Assembly: GCF_055900595.2 (NCBI RefSeq)
Contig: NZ_CM148325.1
DNA: 64,000 nt
Strand: one strand, 5' to 3'
The translations under genes and the position numbers were made by a program. Positions 54,538 through 54,622 of the stretch are shown piece after piece. How positions within the stretch are numbered: the stretch's first letter is position 1; each line of letters begins with the position of its first letter. Under the pieces are notes generated by a model, which saw only the letters and a list, made by a program, of their open reading frames with translations, did not search any database and was not told the DNA's origin.

Positions 54538-54548
54538 AAATCGCTTTA

Positions 54549-54566
54549 CCTCAAGTTAACTTGAGG
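54549..54566. promoter_or_regulatory. SoxR operator (18-bp palindrome CCTCAAGTTAACTTGAGG) within the soxS promoter spacer
   Basis: Perfect palindrome cctcaagttaacttgagg in the soxR-soxS divergent region. Confidence 0.85.
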
Positions 54567-54622
54567 AATTATACTCCCCAACAGATGAATTAACGAACTG
54601 AACACTGAAAAGAGGCAGATTT

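Follow-up and report, generated by a model that had tools for sequence, protein, structure and literature searches.

The 85 bp that separate soxR from soxS in the window (the whole 64,000-nucleotide stretch of DNA that was analyzed) are, with a probability of about 97%, the native bidirectional control region of the two genes in a chromosome of the Escherichia coli group. As read from its sequence, the soxRS switch encoded here is the intact and ordinary reference form of a system that is already known. Since soxRS is among the best-studied redox switches of bacteria, and since the version in the window is unchanged from the reference, the locus carries little weight as a discovery; a bidirectional soxR/soxS promoter has already been described, in a study from 2026 on promoters of this kind (PMC12825309). 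The locus does offer a clean natural illustration of constraint: relative to E. coli K-12, the flanking genes have accumulated 68 synonymous changes, and there are none in the 85-bp control region or in either protein.

Organization of the soxR-soxS Locus

According to the list of open reading frames and the sequence itself, the gap at 54538–54622 lies between the ATG of soxR (54537, minus strand) and that of soxS (54623, plus strand). A first-pass annotation of this DNA had assigned a divergent promoter to the same interval, and its coordinates match the intergenic gap exactly. The gene names given there also stand, as both products pass their respective equivalog models and are 100% identical to their K-12 counterparts. 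Gene order in the window is that of K-12, i.e., yjcE-ghxP-(ryjA)-soxR-soxS-pdeC-yjcB-ssb, and the RefSeq annotation of identical DNA from strain Z0117EC0005 lists yjcE, ghxP, soxR, soxS, pdeC, yjcB, and ssb1 (ssb in K-12). The features of the locus are collected in Table 1.

Table 1. Features of the soxR-soxS locus, in window coordinates. Start sites and hexamer assignments are carried over from K-12, and the reading of the marks in Table S2 of PMC12825309 may be off by a base.
Feature	Position	Strand	Basis or remark
soxR coding sequence, 154 aa, MerR-family [2Fe-2S] redox sensor	54073..54537	-	ORF, TIGR01950, K-12 identity, RefSeq
Intergenic region with the two divergent promoters and the 5′ untranslated region of each gene	54538..54622	.	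0 differences from K-12 over 85 bp
soxS −35 hexamer, TTTACC	54545..54550	+	Element mutated in the "soxS down" construct, PMC12825309 Table S2
SoxR box, perfect 18-bp palindrome CCTCAAGTTAACTTGAGG, single SoxR-dimer site	54549..54566	.	Sequence match and literature on K-12
Probable soxR Shine-Dalgarno, GAGG, 11 nt before ATG	54549..54552	-	Predicted from sequence
soxR transcription start, G, with 23-nt 5′ untranslated region	54560	-	Transferred from K-12, PMC12825309 Table S2
soxR −10 hexamer, perfect TATAAT	54568..54573	-	Reverse complement; PMC12825309 Table S2 and Figure 4 legend
soxS −10 hexamer, TATACT	54570..54575	+	19 bp downstream of −35
Partial SoxR half-site look-alike, CCCCAAC versus CCTCAAG	54576..54582	.	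Between shared −10 and soxR −35; exact bases are our own assignment
soxS transcription start, G, with 39-nt 5′ untranslated region	54584	+	Transferred from K-12, PMC12825309 Table S2
soxR −35 hexamer, TTCGTT, 18 bp upstream of soxR −10	54592..54597	-	Becomes TTGACA in the "soxR up" construct, PMC12825309 Table S2
soxS Shine-Dalgarno, AAGAGG, 7 nt before ATG at 54623	54610..54615	+	Read from sequence; putative function
soxS coding sequence, 107 aa, AraC/XylS-type activator, MarA/SoxS/Rob group	54623..54946	+	ORF, NF007584, K-12 identity, RefSeq

The SoxR and SoxS Proteins

SoxR scores 248.3 bits against the equivalog model TIGR01950 (cut-off 116.9), with residues 12–152 covered, and it stays under the cut-off of every other MerR-family equivalog model scored, including those for MerR, CueR, and ZntR. 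The cluster motif CX2CXCX5C is present in the translation at residues 119–130, with cysteines at positions 119, 122, 124, and 130, a numbering that agrees with PMC9909328. All 154 residues are shared with K-12 SoxR, and the sequence is the same as that of chain A in PDB entries 2ZHG and 2ZHH (full-length match, E = 2.5e-101), the former of which is the structure of the identical SoxR crystallized with DNA. SoxS matches the equivalog NF007584 over residues 1–107 of 107 (228 bits, cut-off 174), remains under the cut-off in the Rob, RamA, and MarA models, and is identical to K-12 SoxS at 107 of 107 residues.

The soxS Promoter

The hexamers of the soxS promoter are separated by a spacer of 19 bp (54551–54569), which is of the over-long, MerR type as compared with one of 17 bp; the same separation is stated for soxS in PMC12825309. 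In the first-pass annotation, the palindrome was placed in the interval that separates −35 from −10. This is correct insofar as the palindrome fills the spacer, taking up 16 of its 19 bp and ending 3 bp before the −10 hexamer, but its first two bases (CC, 54549–54550) are at the same time the last two of the −35 hexamer. The architecture had also been called torsion-activated and MerR-type, and the 19-bp spacer with its box is indeed the published layout of promoters activated by distortion (PMC9909328, PMC12825309). That wording is accurate, since the published mechanism of SoxR is a distortion of DNA.

A generic promoter and terminator scan called no terminator at the palindrome, and it missed the promoters of both genes because it accepted only spacers of 16–18 bp and asked for 9 of 12 matches to the consensus. 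For soxS, with its spacer of 19 bp, such a miss is to be expected; the result fits an over-long spacer and is otherwise uninformative. A search of 54480–54700 with the marbox consensus AYNGCACNNWNNRYYAAAY, the autoregulatory site of SoxS, gave no match above background, and the best matches in this segment had 4 mismatches, the top score that 221-bp segments of the window most often reach. Modest repression by SoxS has been reported at the soxS promoter (PMC12825309).

The 18-bp SoxR Box

The perfect 18-bp palindrome that had been claimed for this site was found as a single 9 + 9 inverted repeat with no central gap, and its sequence occurs only once in the window. Palindromy alone was rejected as an argument for its significance. 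In shuffled sequence, perfect 18-bp palindromes of any kind arise at a rate of 0.27 per 64-kb window, with at least one in 24% of shuffles. A second such palindrome, GTTATTGGTACCAATAAC, is present at 33440–33457, in a stretch that is homologous to fdhF by alignment with K-12, and it is compatible with chance. The center of the palindrome in the soxRS gap, GTTAAC, is itself a 6-bp palindrome of the restriction-enzyme type.

Given that such palindromes are not rare, the element could be a chance occurrence, or another kind of site or structure (a restriction-type site, a cruciform, an RNA hairpin, or a terminator) that merely resembles a SoxR box. This is considered exceedingly improbable. The element is equal, base for base, to the published E. 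coli SoxR box (PMC4411124), and the description of the locus as a well-known system is right. Matches to this 18-mer are expected at 0.03 per window even when up to 3 mismatches are allowed, and what goes far beyond chance is the agreement with this one sequence at every base, not its palindromy. Nor does a hairpin or terminator agree with the local context, as no run of T follows the palindrome and neither mRNA would carry both of its arms, given the K-12-derived starts at 54584 (soxS) and 54560 (soxR). For the identical K-12 sequence, binding by SoxR has been shown, and it is lost when the complete site is mutated (PMC12825309). The element is therefore read here as the SoxR box. Mutation of the partial half-site at the relative location of the look-alike in Table 1 was without effect, and that half-site is not needed for SoxR binding (PMC12825309).

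The soxR Promoter and Bidirectional Overlap

Read on the minus strand from 54573 to 54568, the −10 hexamer of soxR overlaps that of soxS by 4 bp. Placed as in K-12, the soxR start falls within the right arm of the box, which extends from −6 to +12 of soxR, and bound SoxR would therefore cover it. Its left arm would probably double as the ribosome-binding site of soxR, judging from the position of the predicted Shine-Dalgarno. With the K-12-derived starts, there are 23 bp between the two start sites, and bidirectional promoters are described as having divergent starts 10–23 bp apart (PMC12825309). Since the soxS −10 hexamer is overlapped by the minus-strand TATAAT, one SoxR site can both activate soxS and block soxR. 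The first-pass annotation is thus refined on two points, namely the 2 bp that the box has in common with the −35 hexamer, and the bidirectional nature of the promoter, whose −10 hexamers overlap, so that soxR is repressed from the same site as well.

Proposed Mechanism

The elements and their spacing, the K-12 identity of both proteins and of the 85 bp, and the conservation described below were established in the present analysis. SoxR binding, activation through DNA distortion, the start sites, and autorepression are taken from the literature on K-12, in which the sequence is identical.

In the proposed mechanism, a SoxR dimer would occupy the single 18-bp palindrome irrespective of whether its [2Fe-2S] clusters are reduced or oxidized. 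Reduced and oxidized SoxR have similar affinity, and the oxidized form alone is active (PMC8063818); the soxRS promoter contains one complete SoxR site (PMC12825309). With a 19-bp spacer, an excess of 2 bp, RNA polymerase would be unable to contact TTTACC and TATACT simultaneously, and basal transcription of soxS would be low for this reason. Removal of 2 bp from the spacer was reported by Hidalgo and Demple in 1997 to increase basal soxS expression and to make SoxR a repressor (cited in PMC9909328). Following oxidation of the clusters by redox-cycling compounds, superoxide stress, or nitric oxide, SoxR would kink and untwist the center of the palindrome and thereby realign the hexamers, such that soxS would be transcribed from ~54584 and SoxS would then switch on its regulon. 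In a review, the DNA kink in the SoxR-DNA crystal structure is given as the basis of the "activation by distortion" model (PMC9909328).

On the minus strand, the soxR promoter (TTCGTT, 18 bp, TATAAT) would initiate at ~54560. As this start lies within the palindrome, bound SoxR would block its own transcription in either redox state. The published data are in keeping with such an arrangement. The soxS hexamers are sub-optimally spaced at 19 bp and the soxR promoter is not sub-optimal, and basal transcription favors soxR because only the soxS spacing is affected (PMC12825309). Addition of SoxR in vitro activates soxS and directly represses soxR; the block on soxR persists when activation of soxS is disabled, and it most probably results from SoxR covering the soxR start (PMC12825309).

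Conservation of the Switch

Not one of the 85 bp of the gap departs from K-12, and the adjoining coding sequences differ from K-12 at 54 positions in soxR and 14 in soxS, all of which are synonymous. Had the gap changed at the pooled synonymous rate, it would be expected to carry ~31 differences, as against the zero seen (P ~1e-17); at the lower synonymous rate of soxS, the probability of zero changes is ~1e-8. At the species level, the gap is ≥99% identical in 5380 of the 5420 complete E. coli genomes with a match. In strain E138 (NZ_AP022351.1), the soxRS gap matches in two separate places, the better of which covers 71%, and this split match suggests an insertion or rearrangement within the switch of that strain.

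The exact 18-mer was also sought across species, with one genome per species, so that the proportions given here are those of a sample. It is carried by at least 120 genomes, and the matches listed include Enterobacterales, Vibrio, Shewanella, Pseudomonas, alphaproteobacteria, and actinomycetes. Among these matches, a SoxR homologue lies within 150 bp of the 18-mer in 93 of 120 genomes belonging to several phyla, which speaks further against a palindrome of chance origin. SoxS is encoded on the other side of the palindrome in 57 of these 93 soxR-adjacent loci; the other 36, again among the matches listed, have SoxR but no soxS by the palindrome, which is the non-enteric arrangement.

From the matches listed, 50 enterobacterial loci were compared, in which the proteins range down to 62–67% identity. 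A 32-bp core, CTTTACC...TATACT (CTTTACCTCAAGTTAACTTGAGGAATTATACT), is invariant in all 50, and the remainder of the gap diverges, with total lengths from 78 to 155 bp. The sequence AATTATACT around the soxS −10, the CTTTA at −35, and the 19-bp spacing are likewise constant. That the 18 bp themselves do not vary follows from the search, in which the exact palindrome served to choose the loci. Only the 14 flanking bases, which carry the −35, a linker of 3 bp, and the two −10 hexamers, supply independent evidence, and on sequence grounds they support the promoter assignment.

There are also genomes in which the 18-mer stands apart from soxR. For 26 of the 120 matches listed, a SoxR homologue is lacking within 150 bp; examples are Nonomuraea, Streptomyces, Vibrio, Flavobacteriaceae, a Berkelbacteria MAG, and Bombilactobacillus (loci L006, L020–L022, L026, L029, L040, L041, L044, L053, L065, L071, L074, L078, L096, L106, and others). 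Such loci may represent remote target promoters of the SoxR regulon or chance palindromes.

Mosaic Ancestry of the Segment

Overall, the window is ~96% identical to K-12 and belongs to a rare lineage filed as E. coli. In soxR, DNA identity to K-12 falls to 88.4% without a single amino-acid change, a synonymous divergence of species level that equals the distance between K-12 and E. albertii. A 1-kb probe covering 54000–55000 is matched at ≥99% identity in just 9 of 5425 matching E. coli genomes, and at 90–95% in 5411. For a second probe in uvrA (58500–59500), 15 genomes out of 5426 complete ones reach ≥99% identity. At both probes, 100% identity is found in eight strains, Z0117EC0005, E200086, and AST85 among them.

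A four-way comparison was made that included a divergent "E. coli" species representative, SCPM-O-B-8794 (L093). Between ~53625 and ~54745, derived bases are shared with L093 at 85 sites versus 24 with K-12. The flanks of this patch group with K-12 and not with L093, at ratios of 117:21 on the left and 287:32 on the right. The patch of ~1.1 kb takes in ryjA with its promoter, soxR, the complete switch, and the initial ~120 nt of soxS. It was probably acquired through homologous recombination, with another Escherichia lineage as the source, in which case regulator and operator would have traveled together. The 88.4% identity of soxR is accounted for by this difference in ancestry.

Two other explanations for the divergence of soxR were rejected, at least in part. 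A recoded or synthetic genome might be suspected from a gene in which all changes are synonymous. This is contradicted by the eight 100% identical strains, which are natural isolates from humans and a dog, and by confinement of the pattern to a ~1.1-kb patch with an ancestry switch. A generally divergent genome is partly true, given the ~96% overall identity, yet it does not account for a value of 88%.

The foreign ancestry of the patch raises a separate possibility, namely that the site now serves only as an operator for soxR autorepression, with the soxS switch disabled by a mismatched import from another Escherichia lineage. The promoter does lie within the patch, and the allele is common to only about 9 of the 5425 matching genomes. 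Nonetheless, a disabled switch is very unlikely. The import altered none of the residues of SoxR or SoxS and none of the 85 intergenic bases relative to K-12, and both hexamers and the 19-bp spacer are intact. Moreover, since all 68 differences in the flanking genes are synonymous, continued purifying selection on function is indicated. The reading of an intact, native soxRS switch is retained, as nothing in the sequence speaks against it, and the patch is best described as ordinary recombination mosaicism, a minor point of population genetics, for which no functional difference is predicted. Divergence of the patch makes the total conservation of the switch all the more visible. At most, the invariant core of ~146 bp (54509–54654) could have acted as an anchor for recombination, and the switch would tolerate essentially no variation across the genus.

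Several other differences from K-12, and one shared feature, were observed in the window. A full-length match to Rfam RF01408 (157 bits) places the sRNA RyjA/SraL at 53941–54080 on the plus strand, where it converges on soxR and shares 8 nt with the 3′ end of that gene, as in K-12. Just upstream of RyjA, the interval 53800–53999 has 41 differences from K-12 in 200 bp, the maximum of the neighborhood. Farther away, the D-allose operon alsRBACEK (K-12 4306870–4312991) is absent at ~25400–25610. The alignment jumps there from K-12 4313433 to 4306822 with ~140 unaligned bases, and rpiB is aligned in pieces only. Short units that are single in the window, at 13145–13248 and 35994–36143, correspond in K-12 to tandem offset copies, with steps of ~100 bp at 4325805–4326358 and of ~113 bp at 4295948–4296323, respectively. 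These represent differences of copy number in intergenic repeats.

Comparison with Known Systems

The closest known system is soxRS of E. coli K-12 (b4063/b4062), with which the window shares the 85-bp region, both proteins, and gene order, and from which it differs by the 54 synonymous changes in soxR and 14 in soxS. More broadly, the locus resembles the promoters controlled by MerR (Tn501-Tn21 mer), CueR, ZntR, and BmrR. In these systems, as described in PMC9909328, PMC11049809, and PMC8113463, a dimer sits on a dyad between hexamers 19–20 bp apart, activation proceeds by kinking and untwisting of the DNA, and a divergent regulator gene is repressed from the same site. SoxR differs from these regulators in two respects: it responds to the oxidation state of a [2Fe-2S] cluster and not to a metal or drug ligand, and its only enteric target is a second regulator, soxS.

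The same layout is known outside the enteric bacteria. In the mfsA-soxR promoter of Stenotrophomonas, for example, the spacer of 19 bp holds a SoxR box, the −10 is shared, and the soxR start lies under the box (PMC4411124). In non-enteric SoxR promoters of this kind, effector genes are controlled directly and soxS is absent. In contrast, the target in the window is soxS, as in the Enterobacterales.
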